The notes below the pieces were generated by a model. The model saw only the letters and a list, made by a program, of their open reading frames with translations, had not been told where the DNA came from and did no database searches. Positions 35,229 through 44,064 of a stretch of 45,767 nucleotides of DNA are shown piece by piece. The translations under genes were made by a program, and so were the position numbers. The first letter of the stretch is position 1, and each line of letters begins with the position of its first letter. Source of the DNA: Verrucomicrobiota bacterium (GTDB taxonomy: Bacteria; Verrucomicrobiota; Kiritimatiellia; RFP12; UBA1067); contig JAEEZC010000003.1 of the NCBI GenBank assembly GCA_016288465.1, forward strand, positions 1 through 45,767, given 5' to 3'.

Positions 35229-36416
35229 GTGCGCTCTCCAAAGACAATTCTGGTGCTGCTTTCGTCTGGAGGGGACTTCTCTATGCAGATGTTCTCCGGC
35301 GTCCAGAAGTACGCGCGCATGGCTGGGTGGCATCTCCAGACGGTCGAGTACGCCAAGGCGGACAAGGGAGGCTATATGCTGAACCGTTCGCCGTCCGGCC
35401 GCGACATCGGCGAACTGCTTAAGTTCTGGAATCCGGACGGATGCATCGTCGAGTGCGGCATGGCGCAAGAGCTTCTGCGCTCGGTGGACTTCAAGAAACG
35501 TCCTACGGTTTTCCTCGACCGGCATCCGCCGGCCGGAAAGTCCGACATGGTCTGCGTCTACAGCGACGCGGAATCCATCGCAAGGTACGCCGCGCGCGAA
35601 CTGCTGATGTCCAGTTATGGCGACTTCGCCTATGTGCCGTATACGGAAGACTTCGCCTGGAGCCGTGAGCGCGGCGAGGAGTTCTCGAAACTCGTCCGGA
35701 TGAACGGCAAGCGCATTCACGTCTTCAGGTATCCCGAGCGGCAAAGTCGTCCGGAAAGCATGGTGGAGATGTTTTCGCCGTGGTTGCAGTCTCTTCCCAA
35801 GCCCTGCGGCGTGTTTGCGGCCAACGACCAGGTCGCCGAGGGCGTTCTGCTCGCCTGTTCCTGCTGCGGAATCGCCGTTCCGGACGAAATGTCCGTCGTC
35901 GGCGTCGATGACGAGACATACATCTGCGAGAACTGCAAGCCGACGATATCGAGCGTCCAGCGCAATTTCGCCAACGCCGGCGCGATCGCGGGGGAGACGC
36001 TTGCGGAGCTGATGGACGCGAAGGACGGGCGCGTCGCCTCGCGCACATATCCGGCGGCAGGGCTTGTCCGCCGCGAGTCCTCGCGCATCATCAAGGGCAA
36101 AGACCGCCGTGTCGCGAAGGCGGTGGAGTACATCCGCTGCCACGCCTGCGACGGAATCGGTCCGCAGCAGGTCGTGGCGGAGATGGAAATCTCGCGCACG
36201 TTGGCCGACCTGAGCTTTCGCGCGGCACTCGGGCACACGATCCTCGACGAGATACACGCCGTCAGGCTGGATCACGTCAAGAAGCTTCTTGCGAAGGAAG
36301 TCGCGCCGTCCGTCATCGCCGGACAATGTGGCTATTCTTCCATTGTCGATCTCCGCAGGGTTTTCAAGGCTAGGCTCGGCATGACAATGGGCGAATACCT
36401 TGCGTCGCTGGCGTGA
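35229..36416 (+). CDS. Hybrid transcriptional regulator: LacI-type periplasmic-binding-protein sensor domain plus C-terminal AraC-type HTH (XylR-like architecture)
   Basis: PBP type-I hallmark VFAANDQVAEGVLLACSCCGIAVPDEMSVVGVDD. C-terminal AraC HTH (VEYIRCHA...ISRTLADLSFRAALGHTILDEI...AGQCGYSSIVDLRRVFKARLGMTMGEY). GTG start at 35229. Confidence 0.8.
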   Translation: MRSPKTILVLLSSGGDFSMQMFSGVQKYARMAGWHLQTVEYAKADKGGYMLNRSPSGRDIGELLKFWNPDGCIVECGMAQELLRSVDFKKRPTVFLDRHPPAGKSDMVCVYSDAESIARYAARELLMSSYGDFAYVPYTEDFAWSRERGEEFSKLVRMNGKRIHVFRYPERQSRPESMVEMFSPWLQSLPKPCGVFAANDQVAEGVLLACSCCGIAVPDEMSVVGVDDETYICENCKPTISSVQRNFANAGAIAGETLAELMDAKDGRVASRTYPAAGLVRRESSRIIKGKDRRVAKAVEYIRCHACDGIGPQQVVAEMEISRTLADLSFRAALGHTILDEIHAVRLDHVKKLLAKEVAPSVIAGQCGYSSIVDLRRVFKARLGMTMGEYLASLA

Positions 36417-36441: not shown

Positions 36442-36489
36442 GATTTCTGTTTGATTTGTATCTTATTGTAGGTGTGTCTTTGCTATAAT
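36442..36489 (+). promoter_or_regulatory. Promoter A: 22-nt motif GATTTCTGTTTGATTTGTATCT, 20-nt spacer, TATAAT(ACC)
   Basis: Motif at 36442..36463 and TATAAT at 36484..36489. An identical motif with identical spacing occurs at 39720..39767. Lies 48 nt upstream of the glycine-rich protein ATG. Confidence 0.55.
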
Positions 36490-36536: not shown

Positions 36537-39023
36537 ATGGCAATTCGCGAATATGCAACAAAGACCGCAGGCGTTCTTGCGGCTGTCGCGCTCGGGCTGT
36601 CGGCCCGTGCGGACTTCGTGCTCGAAGGCGACGCCAATTCCACGACGTCAGCCGTCGGGGCGGACGACGTGATAACGTTCACGCAGTCCGGCACGCTCAC
36701 GGTAACCGGCTCCGGCACAGTCAATATTCTGCTCGTTGGCGGCGGGGGCGGCGGCGGTTCGCACAAGGCCACCGACGGAAACATCAGCGGCGGCGGCGGT
36801 GGCGGCGGCGGTGTTGTCTATACCAATTCGTTTGCCGTTACGGCAGGGACATACAACATTGTGGTGGGTGCGGGTGGTGTCGGCGGCGGCAAGCCGGAGG
36901 ACAATACGAAAGTCGATGGCACGAACGGCGGCAATACGACCGCTTTCGGCTTCACGGCATACGGCGGCGGCGGTGGCGCGGCATGGGGCGGTCGCGTAGG
37001 CCTCAGCGGCGGTTCCGGCGGAGGGTCGACATCTGCTTGGGACAGTCGTGTTGAAGGCGGAACGGCGATTCACGCCCAAGACGGTAATATCGGCTATGAC
37101 GGAAAGACTGCAGTTCATGCATACACGCCCGGCGGCGGCGGCGGTGCGAGCAATTCGTCGACGGTGGACTCGGAACGCGCAGGGAAGGACGGCATTGCAA
37201 TCGACATAACCGGTGAATCCGTGTACTATGCCGGCGGCGGCGCTGGCGTCAGCTACACGCGCACGACGGCAGGTGGCCTTGGCGGCGGAGGAAACAAGGG
37301 CGAAAAGGGAACGGACGGCCTTGGCGGCGGCGGCGCAAGCGGCTGCGACGGAGGCAGCGGAATTGCAATCATCCGCTATACGCCGCAGTTTTCCGATTCA
37401 AGTTCCTTTTCCATATCCGGAGATGCCAATGCCGAAGAACTTACGCTCCACGACGGCAATGCGCTTGTGTTCCGTCAGAACGGCACGCTTACCGTAACAG
37501 GTGCCGGGATTGTGGACATCCTTGCCGTTGGCGGCGGTGGCGGCGGCGGAGCCACCAACTCCGCAGGAGAGGTTGCCACTGGCGGCGGCGCGGGCGGACT
37601 CGTCTACAGGCAGTCGGTCGCCGTACATGCGGGAACGTTCAGCATTGTTGTCGGAGCGGGCGGTGCGATTGGCGCGAACGGCGGCAACTCGTCCGTCCTC
37701 GGCATTACGGCTTACGGTGGTGGCGCCGGCGCCAAGAGTGGAGGGAATCATCCTGGCAATCCTGGCGGTTCCGGCGGTGGTGCGGCACATGCCTGGGGTG
37801 AGGATGCGAGTACGACAATGTCCGGAGGCGAGGCGGCCTACGCTTCATCAGACAACCATGGTTCTGCCGGCGGTTCGTCCTATTCGTACTATGGTTGCGG
37901 TGGCGGCGGCGGAGCAGGCTCATCGCCTATTTACCGAGACAAGGATGGCGAGACGATCGAAATTGGGGCGGAAAACGATAAAGGCTCTTATCCGCAATGG
38001 GGAGGCGACGGCTTGGCAATCGACATTACCGGGCGGTCGGTCTATTACGCCGGTGGCGGCGCGGCATTCCGGTCTGGCTATAGCAGGCCGAGCGGTGGCA
38101 AGGGCGGCGGAGGCGGCTACAACGAGGACGGAACCGACGGACTCGGCGGTGGCGGTTCGGGCAATCACAGGGGCGGAAGCGGTGTCGTGATCGTGCGTCT
38201 GCGCAGAAAAGCCTCTCCGATAGCGCACGAACCTGCGACCGGCGGCTCTGTAATCCGCGTCGGCGGGGGCTACCGTGCACACAGGTTCACGCAGAACGGA
38301 ACTCTTGTCGTCCCGAAGAACATTGTCGCCGACGTTCTGCTTGTTGGCGGCGGAGGAGGCGGCGGTTCGCACAAGGCAACCGACGGGAACATCAGCGGTG
38401 GCGGCGGCGGAGCCGGCGGTCTCGTTTACAAGACGAACATTGTCATTGCGGCAGGAACATACGATGTTGTGATCGGTGCGGGCGGTGTCGGCGGCGGTAA
38501 GCCGTCAGACAACACGAAGGTCGATGGCACGGACGGCGGCAATTCGACCGCATTCGGCTTCACGGCATACGGCGGTGGCGGTGGCGCGGCATGGGGCGGT
38601 CGCGTAGGTCACAGCGGCGGTTCCGGCGGCGGTTCGACATCTGTTTGGGATGAGAGCGTGGAAGGCGGCAAGGCGATTCACGCCGAAGACGGCAATATAG
38701 GCAATGATGGAATGCCTGCGACCCATGCATACGCGCCAGGAGGCGGCGGAGGTGCGAGCAATTCGACAACAGTGGATTCGACACGCGCTGGGAAGAACGG
38801 CATTGCAATCGACATAACCGGTGAATCCGTGTACTACGCCGGCGGCGGCGCGGGCGTCAGCTACACGCGCACGACGGCAGGCGGCCTTGGCGGAGGAGGA
38901 AACAAGGGCGAAAAGGGTACGGACGGCCTTGGTGGCGGCGGCGCAAGCGGTTGCGACGGCGGTTCTGGCGTCGTGATCATCCGCTATCGTTACGAGGCTG
39001 GCACTTTCATCTTCGTGAAATAA
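36537..39023 (+). CDS. Secreted glycine-rich repeat protein (three about 270-aa glycine-rich domains)
   Basis: Signal peptide (AGVLAAVALGLSARA). Three repeats each carry Q.GTL.V....V(N/D)(I/V)L.VGGGGGGG...GGG.GG(V/L)VY....V..GT(Y/F).(I/V)V(V/I)GAGG...YYAGGGA...GGSG(I/V).I(I/V)R. No catalytic motif recognised. Confidence 0.85.
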   Translation: MAIREYATKTAGVLAAVALGLSARADFVLEGDANSTTSAVGADDVITFTQSGTLTVTGSGTVNILLVGGGGGGGSHKATDGNISGGGGGGGGVVYTNSFAVTAGTYNIVVGAGGVGGGKPEDNTKVDGTNGGNTTAFGFTAYGGGGGAAWGGRVGLSGGSGGGSTSAWDSRVEGGTAIHAQDGNIGYDGKTAVHAYTPGGGGGASNSSTVDSERAGKDGIAIDITGESVYYAGGGAGVSYTRTTAGGLGGGGNKGEKGTDGLGGGGASGCDGGSGIAIIRYTPQFSDSSSFSISGDANAEELTLHDGNALVFRQNGTLTVTGAGIVDILAVGGGGGGGATNSAGEVATGGGAGGLVYRQSVAVHAGTFSIVVGAGGAIGANGGNSSVLGITAYGGGAGAKSGGNHPGNPGGSGGGAAHAWGEDASTTMSGGEAAYASSDNHGSAGGSSYSYYGCGGGGGAGSSPIYRDKDGETIEIGAENDKGSYPQWGGDGLAIDITGRSVYYAGGGAAFRSGYSRPSGGKGGGGGYNEDGTDGLGGGGSGNHRGGSGVVIVRLRRKASPIAHEPATGGSVIRVGGGYRAHRFTQNGTLVVPKNIVADVLLVGGGGGGGSHKATDGNISGGGGGAGGLVYKTNIVIAAGTYDVVIGAGGVGGGKPSDNTKVDGTDGGNSTAFGFTAYGGGGGAAWGGRVGHSGGSGGGSTSVWDESVEGGKAIHAEDGNIGNDGMPATHAYAPGGGGGASNSTTVDSTRAGKNGIAIDITGESVYYAGGGAGVSYTRTTAGGLGGGGNKGEKGTDGLGGGGASGCDGGSGVVIIRYRYEAGTFIFVK
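36729..37380. repeat. Intragenic direct repeat, copy 1 (domain 1 of the glycine-rich protein)
   Basis: Collinear without indels with 38337..38988 at a constant 1608-nt offset. Includes a 38-nt exact run (37191..37228 = 38799..38836). Confidence 0.85.
38337..38988. repeat. Intragenic direct repeat, copy 2 (domain 3 of the glycine-rich protein)
   Basis: See copy 1. By eye, roughly nine in ten positions are identical overall, and higher in the last about 190 nt. Confidence 0.85.
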
Positions 39024-39049
39024 AGAAGCCTGATACGAGCTTTGCGGTA

Positions 39050-39085
39050 TTCGCCGCCGTTGCCACACCCTGGCGCGGCGGCGAA
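39050..39085 (+). terminator. Candidate intrinsic terminator hairpin after the glycine-rich gene
   Basis: TTCGCCGCCG (39050..39059) pairs with CGGCGGCGAA (39076..39085) across a 16-nt loop. The following tract is only weakly T-rich. Confidence 0.4.
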
Positions 39086-39132
39086 CATTGAATTTCGTGT
39101 AGGATTGACGAAAATCAACATTGATTTTCGTG
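39085..39132. repeat. ACATTGAWTTTCGTG boxes: two direct copies 33 bp apart plus an inverted copy forming a perfect 11-bp inverted repeat
   Basis: Direct copies at 39085..39099 and 39118..39132. ACGAAAATCAA (39108..39118) and TTGATTTTCGT (39121..39131) are exact reverse complements separated by 2 nt. Confidence 0.6.
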
Positions 39133-39719: not shown

Positions 39720-39767
39720 GATTTCTGTTTGATTTGTATCTCCTGGTTGGCGCGAGTTTGGTATAAT
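39720..39767 (+). promoter_or_regulatory. Promoter B: identical 22-nt motif GATTTCTGTTTGATTTGTATCT, 20-nt spacer, TATAAT(ACC)
   Basis: Motif at 39720..39741 and TGGTATAATACC with TATAAT at 39762..39767. Lies 30-36 nt upstream of the glycosidase start codons. Confidence 0.55.
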
Positions 39768-39796: not shown

Positions 39797-42409
39797 GTGT
39801 GCATGAAGTTGTGTTCGTCCATACTGCTTGCCGTAGCCGTCGCCGCGAACTGCCGTGCGGCCGCTTCGCCTTTCGGCATCTGCGAACACATCGCCGCGCC
39901 GTCGAGCTACATGCAGGGCGGAGAGTACACGAACCGTGTCGCGATGCTGAACTACTGCCGCGCCGCCGGAATCGGCATGGTCAGGACGGACTTCCGCTGG
40001 AGGCTTTGCTGGTCGGCCGTGAGCGGCGACTGGTCTTGGACGTATTTCGACAATGTGATTGCGGACGCCGAAAGGCGAGGCGTAGAAGTGCTTCCGATAC
40101 TCTTCGGCGACAACCCGGCAACCGGCGCGAAGGCGTACGACGACCTCGACGGATGGGCGGAATTCGTCCGGCAGGTCGTCACGCGCTACAAAGGGCGCAT
40201 CTCGGCGGTGGAGGTCTGGAACGAGTGGAACCATCCGTACTTCTGGACCGGCACAATTGCGCAGTACGCGCGGCTTCTGGAGCGGACCGCCGCGACCGTG
40301 CGGGCGGTCGATCCTTCCGTGCGCATCGTGATGGGCGGGGTCGCGGGCGCCGATCTCGCATCCATCGAGAAGCTTTGCAAGGCGGCTGCGCTCGACGCCT
40401 TCGACGCCGCGGCGTTCCATCCATACTGCTATCCCAATCCGCCGGACTACGATTCGAACTGGCTTGCCAGGCGCATAGAGGCCTTGCGGACTCTTCTCGA
40501 CGGGCAGGGGCGTTCGAGCGCGACGATATGGGTTACAGAAATCGGCTGGCCGACCGAAGGCGACGCGGCGGTAACCGAGGCTCTTCAGGCCGTATACATA
40601 ACGAACGCTGTGAACATCGCGGTTTCGGCCGGAGCGGAGAAGGTGTTTGCGTACGAACTGCGGGCGTGGGGCGTGCCGGAGGACGGAAGGGAAGGCTCGT
40701 TCGGCATAGTGAACCGCGACAACTCCGCGCGTCCCGGCCTTTACGCATACCGCGCATACATCCGCAGCCAGACGACCGGCGAAGCCGATCCTTTGGCCGA
40801 CGCCGTCTTCTTTGCAGGTTCGGATGGATGGGACGTACGTTCGTTTTCCGGCGGCGCGGGCTGGTCTGACCGCCGCGCTCCGCATCCCGACGCCGACTAC
40901 ATTGTCGACTTCGGCGATGCAGGAACGCTTTGGACGCCGTCTGCCAGCACGACGTTCGGCGGACGTTCCCTGACGCTCGGGCGCGTGAACGGCTTGGCCG
41001 GGAACGTGAGACAGATCGGCTGGAATGTTACCGCAACGGTCTCAGACCTTCGCCTTGGTAGAGGACGTTGGGAGGTTACTTCGGGAGCCGGCAACCATCT
41101 TGAAGTCCTCGCAGGCGCCGCAACAGTGCTTTCGCCCGCGTCGGATCCGTTCGTCTTCGCGCCCGCTGCACAGGACTCCGACCATGCCTTCACTCTGTCC
41201 GCGTCTCTTTCGGGTCCTGCGTCGTCGGCAATTGCCTTCACCGAAGGCGCGACGGAGACGGACACGCTCGACGCGACGGTTTCGGGCGACGCTTCCGCCT
41301 TTGTAGGACAGTTCATGGCGACAGGCCCGCGCGTCACGTTGCGTCTCGATTCCGCCGCGCTCGCCGGATGCGACGCCGCGCCGCGTTCGGACGGCGTGTC
41401 GCTTTCCGACGGTGCGACGCTTGCGCCGCTTTTCGACGGACAGTCTCTTTCCTCTTCTTCGCGCGGCTTTTTGTCCGACGGAACCGCAGTCATAGAAGTG
41501 CCGGACGGCTGGAGCTTCACGCTTTCCGTTCCGCTTTCGGGGTTCTTCTTGAAGCGCGGCGAAGGGACGCTCGTCATCGGAAGCGGAGTTTCAGGCGCAG
41601 GCGGAATCGTCGTCGAGGAAGGCTCCGTCGTCCCGGAGAACGCGAACGCGGCGTCGCGCATTCTCTCCTTTTCCGGCGGACGCGTTCTCGGGACTCTTGG
41701 CGCGGACTCCTTCGAAGGAGTTGCCGTCGGAAGCGCGACTGCCGCGCTTGACGGCTGGACTGGCGAAGGTTCGGTAGCGTCCGCCACGCCTGTGCCCGGC
41801 TCGGGCGTAGGCTGGCCGTTGCCCGGAGAGAATCACTCCAAAGCGCTGAAGCTGGAAGGCGCGCCGGTGACGAGAGACTATGCGGAGTCTGGCGTTCAGG
41901 AGCGTGCTTCGCTCGACATGCTCGTTCAGGTGCGGCGCTTCAGAGGCGACTGGCGCACAGTCTTCACTCCTGCGGAAGGCGAAGCCAGAATGTCCGTCGC
42001 GTTCGATTCGGACGGCGCGCCATGGCTTTGGCATGCGGACGCGGAAGGGCGTCCGGTCTGGACGCGGCTCAGGGCGAGGCGCGCGTTCGCGAACGGCGAC
42101 TGGGTTCGCGTTTCGCTCGACTTCGACTACGCCACGAATCCGCAGGGGCTTGCCTTCGTTCAGGTTCGGCTCGACGGATGGTGCGCCACGGCTCCCGAAG
42201 GATGGAAGAAGCCGTTCGAATCGGTGGGCGGAGGAACCTGGTTCCGTCTGCTTCCCGTGGATTCGGATGCGAAGTCGGTGTCGCGCGTCGGTTTTGAAGG
42301 AGCGTTGGCGCTCGACGATGTCGTTCTCGCTTCGCGCGACGACGCCGAGCCGTCTCCGTTGGGACGGGAGAAGGTTTTCGTTCCGGGATGCGCCATGTTC
42401 GTAAAGTAG
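39797..42409 (+). CDS. Secreted multidomain glycoside hydrolase: clan GH-A TIM-barrel (GH39/GH5-like), beta-strand-repeat (PATR-like) middle region, LamG/concanavalin-like C-terminal domain
   Basis: Signal peptide. Acid/base-type motif VEVWNEWNHP and nucleophile-type motif IWVTEIGWPT. Middle region is rich in G/S/A/T beta-repeat sequence. C-terminal jelly-roll-like segment. Start is ATG 39797 or 39803. Family assignment is from motif memory only. Confidence 0.85.
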   Translation: MCMKLCSSILLAVAVAANCRAAASPFGICEHIAAPSSYMQGGEYTNRVAMLNYCRAAGIGMVRTDFRWRLCWSAVSGDWSWTYFDNVIADAERRGVEVLPILFGDNPATGAKAYDDLDGWAEFVRQVVTRYKGRISAVEVWNEWNHPYFWTGTIAQYARLLERTAATVRAVDPSVRIVMGGVAGADLASIEKLCKAAALDAFDAAAFHPYCYPNPPDYDSNWLARRIEALRTLLDGQGRSSATIWVTEIGWPTEGDAAVTEALQAVYITNAVNIAVSAGAEKVFAYELRAWGVPEDGREGSFGIVNRDNSARPGLYAYRAYIRSQTTGEADPLADAVFFAGSDGWDVRSFSGGAGWSDRRAPHPDADYIVDFGDAGTLWTPSASTTFGGRSLTLGRVNGLAGNVRQIGWNVTATVSDLRLGRGRWEVTSGAGNHLEVLAGAATVLSPASDPFVFAPAAQDSDHAFTLSASLSGPASSAIAFTEGATETDTLDATVSGDASAFVGQFMATGPRVTLRLDSAALAGCDAAPRSDGVSLSDGATLAPLFDGQSLSSSSRGFLSDGTAVIEVPDGWSFTLSVPLSGFFLKRGEGTLVIGSGVSGAGGIVVEEGSVVPENANAASRILSFSGGRVLGTLGADSFEGVAVGSATAALDGWTGEGSVASATPVPGSGVGWPLPGENHSKALKLEGAPVTRDYAESGVQERASLDMLVQVRRFRGDWRTVFTPAEGEARMSVAFDSDGAPWLWHADAEGRPVWTRLRARRAFANGDWVRVSLDFDYATNPQGLAFVQVRLDGWCATAPEGWKKPFESVGGGTWFRLLPVDSDAKSVSRVGFEGALALDDVVLASRDDAEPSPLGREKVFVPGCAMFVK

Positions 42410-42423
42410 GTATCGGAGGAAAG

Positions 42424-44064
42424 ATGATGAGATGTTCGGTTCGCCAGATCGAGATTGTCGCTTTATTGGCTGCGGTTGTAGTCCAGTGCGCATTCGGGCA
42501 TGGAACTTCGCTCGGCACGTGCGCCCATGTGACGCGCGACGAGTTCGCGGAGAGGGATGCCGCCTACAAAATGATGCGCGAAGCGGGAATGGACTACGTC
42601 AGATGCGACTTCGACTGGCGCTGGTACCAGAATGGCAGGGACGCGCCGTTAGACTGGCGCATGTGCGACGCTGTCGTTGGCGACGCGGCGAAGCGCGGAA
42701 TAACCGTCCTGCCGATCCTCTGCAACCCGCCGGATTGGGCAAGGCCGGTGCAAGACCATGTCGCGGAATGGCGTTCGTTCGTGCGCGCGACGGCAACGCA
42801 CTTCAAGGGACGCATCCCGGTCTACGAAATCTGGAACGAGGAGAACCATCCCGGCTTCTGGAAGAATCCGAATGCCGAGGACTACGTGCCTGTCCTTAGG
42901 GCCGCATACGAGGAGATCAAGGCGGTCGATCCGTCTGCCAAGGTCGCCATCGGCGGCACTGCCGGGTTGGCGCTCGATTATCTTGAGGACGTGTACAAGG
43001 CGGGCGGCAAAGACTGCTTCGACATAATGAACGTCCATCCGTACAGCTGGCCGAATCCGCCGGACGCGCTTGCCGGGCAGATGGAGAGTCTGCGCAGGCT
43101 CATGGCGAAGTACGGCGACGCGGCGAAACCGGTCTGGATAACGGAGATTGGGTGGCCGACGCACAGGGCTTCCGTGCCGATGGCGGGCGTTCTGCTCGCA
43201 GGGCTGAAGATAGCCCGTCCGGAACGGAAAACCTGGCGCGTCGGCTACGTCGACGAGGCGGACAACATGGACATGACGCGGGATATCGCAGAGGGAATCC
43301 GCGAATGCCTTCCGCAAGGTTCGACGTGCAGGGCCTGTACGGCGGCGGAGCTTGTCGCGGCGCTTGGGACGAACGGACTCGACGCGGTCGTCTATCCGTA
43401 CACTGAGGCGTATCCGTTCGCGACGGTCAAGGCTGTGGCGCAGTTCGTGAAGCGCGGCGGAGTGCTGGCTGATTTCGGCGGCTCGCCGATGTACTATCCT
43501 GTTCTGGACGGAAAGCGCGTCCAGAAGGATGCCGAAGGAAAGGACCTTTTCGGCGCGACGGCGCCGAAGTTCCGCATCAGCGTGTATGGTCCGGGCAAGG
43601 AGAACGGGCTTAAATGGGGCGTAAAGACGTTCGCCACCGACGCTGCGACAAAGGCCGGCATGAAGTTCGAGCCGAACGGATTCGGCGCGTTCCGGTTCTT
43701 CAGGGCCGACCGTCTGCAGTCCGGCGACGAGATGGTTCCGCTTCTGTCGGTGAAGGACGTGAAAGGGGAGGACGCTGTCAGCGCATGCGTATACCGCTTC
43801 GGCAGCGACTTGAAAGGGGCTGTGATCGTCTCGGGCTGCACGGGCGCTGCGGGCGGAGTCGGCGAGCGGCAGCAGGCGGAATATCTCCAACATGCGCTGG
43901 CCGCGGCTGCGCAGACAGGCGTCGAGCGCGTGTTCGTCTACGAGTTTCGCGCGAACGAGAAGGATCCGCGCTACAGCGAAGACCATTTCGGCATCGTCCA
44001 TCGTGATTTCACCCCCAAGCCCGCGTATGAGGTGCTCAAAGCCGGCTCCGATGTCCAATTGTAA
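42424..44064 (+). CDS. Secreted clan GH-A glycoside hydrolase paralog with C-terminal GATase1-like (GH42 domain-B-like) module
   Basis: GGAGGA SD, then ATG 42424 and a signal peptide. YEIWNEENHP and VWITEIGWPT motifs, plus HPYSWPNPPD shared with the upstream paralog (HPYCYPNPPD). Confidence 0.85.
   Translation: MMRCSVRQIEIVALLAAVVVQCAFGHGTSLGTCAHVTRDEFAERDAAYKMMREAGMDYVRCDFDWRWYQNGRDAPLDWRMCDAVVGDAAKRGITVLPILCNPPDWARPVQDHVAEWRSFVRATATHFKGRIPVYEIWNEENHPGFWKNPNAEDYVPVLRAAYEEIKAVDPSAKVAIGGTAGLALDYLEDVYKAGGKDCFDIMNVHPYSWPNPPDALAGQMESLRRLMAKYGDAAKPVWITEIGWPTHRASVPMAGVLLAGLKIARPERKTWRVGYVDEADNMDMTRDIAEGIRECLPQGSTCRACTAAELVAALGTNGLDAVVYPYTEAYPFATVKAVAQFVKRGGVLADFGGSPMYYPVLDGKRVQKDAEGKDLFGATAPKFRISVYGPGKENGLKWGVKTFATDAATKAGMKFEPNGFGAFRFFRADRLQSGDEMVPLLSVKDVKGEDAVSACVYRFGSDLKGAVIVSGCTGAAGGVGERQQAEYLQHALAAAAQTGVERVFVYEFRANEKDPRYSEDHFGIVHRDFTPKPAYEVLKAGSDVQL

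Follow-up and report, generated by a model that had tools for sequence, protein, structure and literature searches.

What a secreted glycine-rich protein with three repeated domains does for its host, and whether the long direct repeat in its gene acts as a rearrangement switch, are the two questions raised by a locus from an uncultured member of Kiritimatiellia, an abundant gut and rumen lineage. The window, that is, the whole stretch of DNA analyzed, comprises 45,767 nucleotides (nt) of contig JAEEZC010000003.1 (assembly GCA_016288465.1), and all of its features described below lie on the forward strand. The gene concerned (36537..39023, from the open reading frame (ORF) list and its translation) encodes an 828-amino-acid (aa) exported protein with three TG-type glycine-rich domains. 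Such glycine-rich heads are known mainly from phage tail fibres and from ALK/LTK, and provide a compact scaffold for evolving binding specificity. We propose that the protein is an exported, non-enzymatic, multivalent surface glycan-binding protein working with neighbouring hydrolases, a reading that we consider somewhat better than evenly probable. As the repeat proved old and stable, the question of a rearrangement switch, raised by an initial annotation of this DNA, is answered in the negative.

Profile searches place the protein in a known domain family, Pfam PF21722 (Gly_rich_2), which it matches at 185.4 bits against a gathering cut-off of 24.3 (E 2e-54). The match falls into three stretches, of which the best covers profile positions 4-226 of 226; all three domains score far above the curated cut-off, and the same family was found in every homologue retrieved. 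In addition, PHROG 2295 (function unknown) was matched with an E-value of 8e-106, and NCBIfam returned no family for the 828-aa protein. A search of 5.8 billion proteins yielded at least 1100 relatives, all with PF21722, and the few that are named are proteins of Kiritimatiellia metagenome-assembled genomes described as "hypothetical" or "glycine-rich domain-containing". Using a hidden Markov model (HMM) built on the protein's own three copies, the limits of domain 1 were set at aa 40-286 (36654..37394), those of domain 2 at aa 306-560 (37452..38216), and those of domain 3 at aa 576-822 (38262..39002). The motif skeleton listed in the initial annotation (Q.GTL.V, hhVGGGGGGG, GGG.GG.VY, GAGG, YYAGGGA, and GGSG..I.R) is present in 3/3 domains, and its division of the protein into three glycine-rich domains agrees with the three Pfam stretches.

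The predicted structure is consistent with this assignment. The full-length AlphaFold2 model, based on an alignment of 42 three-domain homologues, has a mean predicted local distance difference test score (pLDDT) of 87.6 and a predicted template modelling score (pTM) of 0.52; it defines the individual domains well, but not how they are placed relative to one another. Domain 1 modelled alone (98 alignment rows) reached a pLDDT of 96.5 and a pTM of 0.93. Each modelled domain contains a beta-sandwich core, and about 60% of the residues have no regular DSSP state despite a pLDDT above 90. Foldseek searches against the PDB found the fibre of cyanophage Pam3 (7ypx_A) as the best match (E 3.9e-7, probability 1.0, TM-score 0.45-0.47, 24% identity), followed by the tail tip of mycobacteriophage Bxb1 (9d93 chains Qb/Qa, E 4.5e-6/2.1e-5, TM-score 0.39-0.45) and, at E-values of about 1e-3 (1.4e-3 to 3e-2) and TM-scores of 0.22-0.30, the TG domains of LTK and ALK. 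A sequence search of PDB chains with the protein gave nothing at E<=1, and a profile of the 42 homologues found the Pam3 fibre alone, at E 0.6. Among predicted viral structures, 243 matches were obtained at E<=1e-3, from cyanophages, prasinoviruses, one halovirus, and many uncultured tailed phages, and several of these combine the glycine-rich head with lectin-type or PA14 domains. Thus, the protein joins family PF21722, and in fold it is related to phage receptor-binding heads and, at a greater distance, to ALK/LTK. As modelled, each domain falls into the class of TG-type heads, a TNF-like beta-sandwich carrying a glycine-rich lattice, for which the structural matches suggest polyglycine-II geometry. 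The HMM search and single-domain structure prediction that had been recommended as checks thereby gave a PF21722 match in all three domains and a confident beta-sandwich model, and the similarity to phage tail proteins mentioned in the initial annotation was borne out by the fold matches to Pam3 and Bxb1.

The known relatives differ from the present protein in several respects. Pam3 gp24 (PDB 7YPX, 7YFW) consists of a TNF-like domain and a glycine-rich domain and has been likened to S16 gp38 and Caenorhabditis elegans ALK (PMC9608196). It shares with the 828-aa protein the TNF-like sandwich, the glycine lattice, GGGGxGG-type motifs, a constant stem, and variable loops. However, gp24 is a chaperone-dependent homotrimer with an N-terminal helical shaft, whereas the 828-aa protein has three heads per chain, no shaft, and no chaperone gene, and appears to be Sec-exported. 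A gp24 homologue of a Klebsiella phage (TFP_Y) recognises a glycan, lipopolysaccharide, and host-range mutations were found in its glycine-rich domain (PMC12671077). The Bxb1 tail tip (PDB 9D93, chains Qa and Qb), the second-best structural match, is part of a virion tail hub without a tandem array; the glycine-rich "brush" fingers of mycobacteriophages are presumed anti-receptors, with presumed contact to lipid-rich cell walls (PMC13243795). In the TG supradomain of ALK/LTK (PDB 7NX1, 7LRZ, 7LIR), a beta-sandwich likewise bears a glycine lattice as the ligand-binding module, but it belongs to a eukaryotic receptor-kinase ectodomain and its ligand is a protein cytokine. At E<=0.1, PF21722 was the sole Pfam match and none to the ALK-type glycine-rich family was found, and the polyglycine-II sandwich of S16 gp38, a T-even adhesin, was absent from the best 50 PDB matches of either model.

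With regard to export, the ORF is open over its full length and its N-terminus is signal-peptide-like, in line with the secreted product called in the initial annotation. The signal peptide MAIREYATKTAGVLAAVALGLSARA (36537..36611), as read from the sequence, has an A-x-A site and no lipobox Cys. The single hydrophobic segment of the protein spans aa 11-29, aa 2-20 are modelled as a helix at low confidence in the full-length model, and the same type of start occurs in all 120 homologues except truncated or fused ones. Export by the Sec pathway is predicted on these grounds. The glycine content of the protein is 29%, and the gene is under purifying selection, with an omega of 0.077 against its counterpart in a sister strain (P0002 at locus L004, from the ENA metagenome sample ERZ27257203).

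No sign of catalysis was detected. Neither Pfam nor NCBIfam assigned a catalytic family to the 828-aa protein, which agrees with the absence of an enzymatic motif reported earlier, and the homologue alignment contains no invariant acidic or nucleophilic residue, its invariant columns being nearly all Gly. That the protein might nevertheless be an unrecognised enzyme with a novel glycan-active catalytic fold is suggested by its place in hydrolase operons, sometimes with unannotated genes in between; this is very improbable given the lack of a catalytic match, the absence of conserved acidic or nucleophile residues, and fold relatives that are binding modules. In the 42 three-domain homologues, the segments between the Gly runs are the highest in entropy, a pattern of variable loops on a constant frame like that of the phage heads.

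The genomic context points to carbohydrate degradation. Comparison of the window with seven homologous loci, ranging from 97% to about 38% identity and including both three- and two-domain forms, revealed a glycoside hydrolase at most two genes downstream on the same strand in 8/8 loci, often after a gap of only 3-20 nt. The hydrolase family varies by locus, being either GH5/39/42-like (GH-A clan) or a GH78-type rhamnosidase. In the window, two clan GH-A-like glycoside hydrolase genes (870 aa and 558 aa, 39797..44064) follow the glycine-rich gene, as indicated by weak Pfam matches to Cellulase, GH17, and GH39. Fusion to carbohydrate-related enzymes also occurs, P0025 being a GDSL esterase with three TG domains and P0120 a SASA carbohydrate esterase with two.

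A regulator of sugar-sensing type adjoins the gene as well. Directly upstream lies a hybrid regulator of XylR type (35229..36416), in which a periplasmic-binding-protein-like sugar sensor (Peripla_BP_3, E 9e-28) is combined with an AraC-type helix-turn-helix domain (HTH_18, E 2e-10). Such a regulator adjoins the gene in 5/8 loci, the window included; in L004, L021/L022, and L025 it directly precedes the homologue, and in L020 it lies on the downstream side. Between regulator and gene, a 22-nt box (GATTTCTGTTTGATTTGTATCT, 36442..36463), a candidate site for this regulator, stands 20 nt upstream of a TATAAT element (36484-36489). A second exact copy (39720..39741) precedes the hydrolase operon with the same 20-nt spacing to TATAAT. 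Zero copies of the box are expected by chance, and both are conserved in the sister strain. The glycine-rich gene has its own promoter region and, judging from the shared box, is probably co-regulated with the hydrolase operon. Just past its stop codon, a hairpin (39033..39100; RNA fold -35.2 kcal/mol, z -3.9) is likely to mark the transcript end, though it lacks a canonical U-tract; a scan of the region for consensus promoters and terminators gave nothing useful and did not call this hairpin.

Taken together, the absence of a catalytic family, the conserved hydrolase loci, the promoter box, the esterase fusions, and the variable loops argue for a multivalent binding partner of the hydrolases. 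Under this proposal, a rigid scaffold would be provided by the conserved Gly runs and the binding surface by the variable loops that separate them, and three heads on flexible linkers would allow multivalent binding. The protein would be held at the cell surface through its C-terminal tail (Gly, five hydrophobic residues, Lys), where it would capture polysaccharide or oligosaccharide for the glycoside hydrolases of the adjacent genes, and the adjacent XylR/AraC-type regulator would switch on gene and hydrolases through the common 22-nt box. We infer the glycan as ligand, the retention at the surface, and the role of the tail from this combination of features. So conceived, the protein would resemble the SusE/F-like surface glycan-binding proteins of Bacteroidota and proteins with multiple carbohydrate-binding modules, which are likewise non-catalytic, multi-domain, exported, and encoded beside hydrolases with a sugar-sensing regulator. 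The Bacteroidota proteins differ in having an unrelated fold; the present protein lacks the lipoprotein Cys, its gene is not accompanied by a SusC/SusD pair (no SusC/D-like gene is found among the listed neighbours), and the C-terminal tail is the only candidate anchor. The hydrolase-linked context offers a concrete and cheaply testable hypothesis of function for a large Pfam family without a tested cellular role.

Several observations weigh against this proposal. No binding assay for any cellular PF21722 protein was found in the searchable literature, and since proteins or lipid-rich envelopes are bound by phage and ALK/LTK relatives too, a ligand other than a glycan is conceivable. The structural comparison has its limits, as the TM-scores to solved structures are below 0.5 and the sequence-profile link to Pam3 reaches only E 0.6. 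The conservation of the neighbourhood is partly inherited, and the eight loci are not independent observations. In addition, only 1/150 other representative genomes of the class was matched at E<=1e-20, so polysaccharide use across the class does not generally involve the protein; this count is taken as a lower bound, because the same kind of genome search, run with PF21722, missed the window gene and a paralogue on contig C8 in their own genome. Finally, the apparent fusions to sigma or anti-sigma factors contain an internal signal-peptide-like stretch (…MNI(R/K)…AAATL…) at the junction. These are the metagenome homologues P0041, P0042, and P0062, in which anti-sigma (zf-HC2) or extracytoplasmic function (ECF) sigma N-termini, a transmembrane segment, and a TG array share one frame; they may be real sensor fusions or read-through gene calls. 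Fused or not, the sigma/anti-sigma genes of these three homologues stand immediately upstream of the TG array.

It is also conceivable that the protein is an adhesin for a protein or envelope target, serving cell-cell contact, host attachment, or as a phage decoy, with a ligand other than a glycan. Glycine-rich tips of the S16/PP01 gp38 type are reported to bind outer-membrane proteins, the TG domains of ALK/LTK bind a protein cytokine according to the names of the PDB entries, and for the "brush" domains of mycobacteriophages, contact with lipid-rich walls is presumed (PMC13243795). We judge this quite unlikely, however, since every locus examined has a context of carbohydrate catabolism and carbohydrate esterases occur as fusion partners within the family.

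The strong PHROG and viral-model matches, together with phage fibres as the nearest solved structures, might suggest a fibre gene of a prophage or phage-tail-like particle left in the chromosome. Nevertheless, no phage genes lie nearby, the neighbours being housekeeping genes, the regulator, and the hydrolases; the protein carries a Sec-type signal peptide and a cellular C-terminal tail; domain 1 directly follows the signal peptide without an N-terminal helical shaft; no chaperone gene is present; and the chromosomal context is conserved across distant relatives. An origin as a phage gene was rejected on these grounds (cellular context, signal peptide, lineage tail, and lack of shaft and chaperone) and is extremely unlikely.

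The tail itself, GTFIFVK at the C-terminus (39000..39020), consists of Gly, five hydrophobic residues, and Lys, and belongs to the last block of the model, with a pLDDT of 55. Nearly all homologues end in Gly, five hydrophobic residues, and Arg or Lys. In the genome as a whole, the pattern G-x-h4-[RKQHE] closes 96 ORFs of 200 aa or more, with a median length of 819 aa, where its frequency at internal positions would predict 8. The carriers include LamG, PA14, and InlB-repeat proteins, the 870-aa hydrolase next to the glycine-rich gene, which ends in CAMFVK (42389-42406), and another TG protein, with two domains, encoded on contig C8. No NCBIfam sorting-signal model for PEP-CTERM, LPXTG, GlyGly-CTERM, or the C-terminal domain (CTD) of the type IX secretion system matches the protein, and seven residues are too short for a transmembrane helix or for a CTD of 80-100 aa. 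A literature search for a C-terminal sorting signal of Kiritimatiellota gave nothing useful. From its distribution, the tail is a candidate for a lineage-specific sorting or docking tag, and the 828-aa protein would be a clean substrate for working it out in Kiritimatiellia.

A broader proposal can be built on these features. In this lineage, exported proteins with two or three such heads are encoded before glycoside hydrolase genes, and for PF21722 no tested function of cellular members was found in the family entry or the literature; nor did the literature found describe a tandem array of two or three domains combined with a signal peptide, a C-terminal tail, and a hydrolase context. Tandem TG-head arrays might represent an unrecognised class of surface glycan-capture proteins in Kiritimatiellia, a cellular counterpart of phage tips, whose loops would diversify on a fixed polyglycine scaffold and which would be displayed by a seven-residue C-terminal tag and encoded by the first gene of sugar-regulated hydrolase loci. 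This generalization is tentative, and we place it below even probability. A stronger version, in which the three heads would fold as a single-chain pseudo-trimer mimicking a fibre tip, is speculative.

We now turn to the direct repeat. Arm 1 (36729..37380) pairs with arm 2 (38337..38988) at a constant offset of 1608 nt and without indels, exactly as first described. Over these 652 nt, the arms are 85.3% identical in DNA (96 mismatches, of which 57 affect third codon positions) and 86% identical in protein; over the whole 247-codon domain, the identity of domains 1 and 3 is 80% in DNA and 78.5% in protein. "Near-identical at DNA level", the wording of the initial annotation, was therefore an overstatement, the synonymous divergence (dS) between the two being 0.40. 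The longest exact run shared by domains 1 and 3 is 40 nt (37189-37228) rather than the 38 nt first reported. In permutations that keep the number of mismatches per codon position, the mean longest run was 30.8 nt and a run of at least 40 nt had P = 0.11; since the observed run is no longer than chance at that identity, a fresh conversion tract between the two domains is not indicated. Domain 2 shares 53-55% protein and 58-59% DNA identity with domains 1 and 3, which exceeds the bare motif skeleton it had been credited with. The glycine run, given as seven or more residues following L(L/A)VGG, is present, but its length is seven in total when counted from L(L/A)V. Overall, the repeat is far beyond chance and is a homologous domain duplication in a glycine-rich protein.

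Comparison among relatives shows that different pairs of domains resemble each other in different lineages. Domains 1 and 3 share 79% protein identity here and in the orthologue P0003 (63% identical) and 90% in P0010, while in P0012 and P0049 it is domains 1 and 2 that share 79%, and all domain pairs of P0005 share 73-79%. Homogenised pairs thus occur in other lineages as well (domains 1 and 3 in P0010; domains 1 and 2 in P0012 and P0049). In a maximum-likelihood tree of 53 domains, domains 1 and 3 of one protein are sisters here and in P0003, P0010, and P0021, and domain 2 of the 828-aa protein is orthologous to the middle domain of P0003 with a support of 100/99. Approximately unbiased (AU) tests, for which the groups were chosen with the tree already in view, rejected a grouping of domain 1 with domain 1 of P0003 (p 1.7e-6) and of domain 3 with domain 3 of P0003 (p 1.7e-6), and did not reject the within-protein grouping of domains 1 and 3 (p 0.38). 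These comparisons support concerted evolution of domains 1 and 3, by either intragenic conversion or domain replacement. The situation resembles concerted evolution in bacterial surface proteins in that non-adjacent domains are homogenised within lineages and domain 2 remains orthologous; it differs in that the last event here is old (dS 0.40) and no copy-number change is seen at the strain level.

The age of this event follows from the sister strain. Its gene is also 2487 nt long, has three domains, and is 95.2% identical in DNA with no indel (dS 0.16); in the tree, every domain groups with the one at the same position in the other strain. The dS between domains 1 and 3 is 0.40 here and 0.45 in the sister strain (omega about 0.2), and it is mildly lower in the 3′ third (0.31 vs 0.43-0.47). 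Because this dS exceeds that between the strains and the domains pair by position, the homogenisation was not recent. Of the earlier suggestion of "recent gene conversion or duplication", the homogenisation of domains 1 and 3 is thus upheld by the tree and AU tests, but its recency is contradicted by the dS values. Judged from these alignments, the similarity of domains 1 and 3 is best described as an old intragenic conversion that predates the split from the sister strain, with no active rearrangement switch.

The same data bear on the possibility of a contingency locus, in which the repeats of about 650 bp and the GGC tracts would make the repeat number variable within the population through frequent deletion, expansion, or in-frame slippage. 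The direct repeats at 1608-nt offset, the occurrence of both two- and three-domain forms in the family (72 and 49 proteins, respectively, among the top 121 matches), and the concerted evolution that shows the copies to interact would fit such a locus. However, the arms are 85% identical with no unusual identity tract (P 0.11), they diverged by a dS of 0.40 vs 0.16 between strains, and orthologues as distant as about 40% identity retain all three domains. Perfect triplet runs in the gene do not exceed 5 units, and in 212 domains the Gly run that follows the hhV strand has a conserved length of 7; the Gly tracts therefore seem structurally constrained rather than slippery. Neither the copy-number instability attributed to the repeats nor the slippage of (GGC)n tracts stands up against these observations, and the comparison of repeat number in relatives, recommended in the initial annotation, returned three domains and an identical gene length in the sister strain. 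With an old and stable repeat and no slippery tracts, a contingency locus was rejected and is most improbable.

A further homologue is relevant in this respect. P0031 (586 aa, from an NCBI source) is an in-register chimera of the first two-thirds of domain 1 and the last third of domain 2, and has exactly one unit fewer than its three-domain relatives P0008, P0013, P0012, P0009, and P0006; the junction is the conserved site AYGGDGLAFDI(T/S)G. Its appearance as a recombinant of domains 1 and 2, one unit short, would fit a contingency locus, but it may be an assembly collapse: an unequal-recombination product and a collapsed short-read assembly are both possible.

Divergence between the strains is concentrated in one segment of domain 1. 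Of the 119 nucleotide differences from the sister strain, 23 fall in this loop-coding hot spot (37022..37136, 115 nt), as do 6 of 21 changed amino acids; the nucleotide divergence there is about 20% vs about 4.8% gene-wide, and by our own arithmetic about 5.5 differences would be expected. Its columns lie in the high-entropy loops between the conserved Gly runs, and the homologous segment of domain 3 differs from the sister strain at 5 positions. Copying of the hot spot from domain 3 was considered and rejected, 10 sites favouring one strain and 8 the other. The segment may be an imported allele or reflect diversifying selection on a binding loop.

These variable loops also bear on whether the protein is a structural component of the envelope or matrix, its glycine lattices building up a surface layer or sheath as rigid units and binding nothing in particular. 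The very high Gly content, the rigid predicted lattice, a C-terminal tail common to many large surface-type proteins, and the lack of a known ligand would all suit such a role. Hypervariable loops and a strain-level hot spot in domain 1 are more readily explained by a recognition surface than by lattice contacts, however, and the link to hydrolases and a sugar-sensing regulator is consistent; moreover, few genomes of the class carry the gene, unlike a core envelope component. A purely structural role is accordingly unlikely, and multivalent glycan binding remains the preferred reading.

Some other observations were made in the window and in related sequences. When positions 39797-39870 of the window were compared with L004 13267-14500, the sister strain proved to have an additional gene, for a 377-aa secreted protein without a Pfam match, between the glycine-rich gene and the hydrolase. 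The 870-aa hydrolase of the window begins with the signal peptide of that 377-aa gene (MKLCSSILLAVAVAANCRAA), while another signal peptide heads the sister-strain hydrolase; the leader was therefore swapped, either by loss of about 1.1 kb between the two signal-peptide regions or by an insertion in the opposite direction. At L021 and L022, two samples with P0006, the downstream gene is a single 553-aa GH-A-like ORF in one and a pair of ORFs of 389 aa and 160 aa in the other, where the product contains X residues; the split is probably an assembly gap or frameshift. The same genome encodes further PF21722 proteins, namely the two-domain paralogue at C8:1357-3201 (L006), which has the same C-terminal tail, a fragment at a contig end (C9:7082-7618), and two giant ORFs with one TG domain each, of at least 2260 aa (C34:1-6780, reverse strand) and at least 3334 aa (C327:3169-13170, forward strand).

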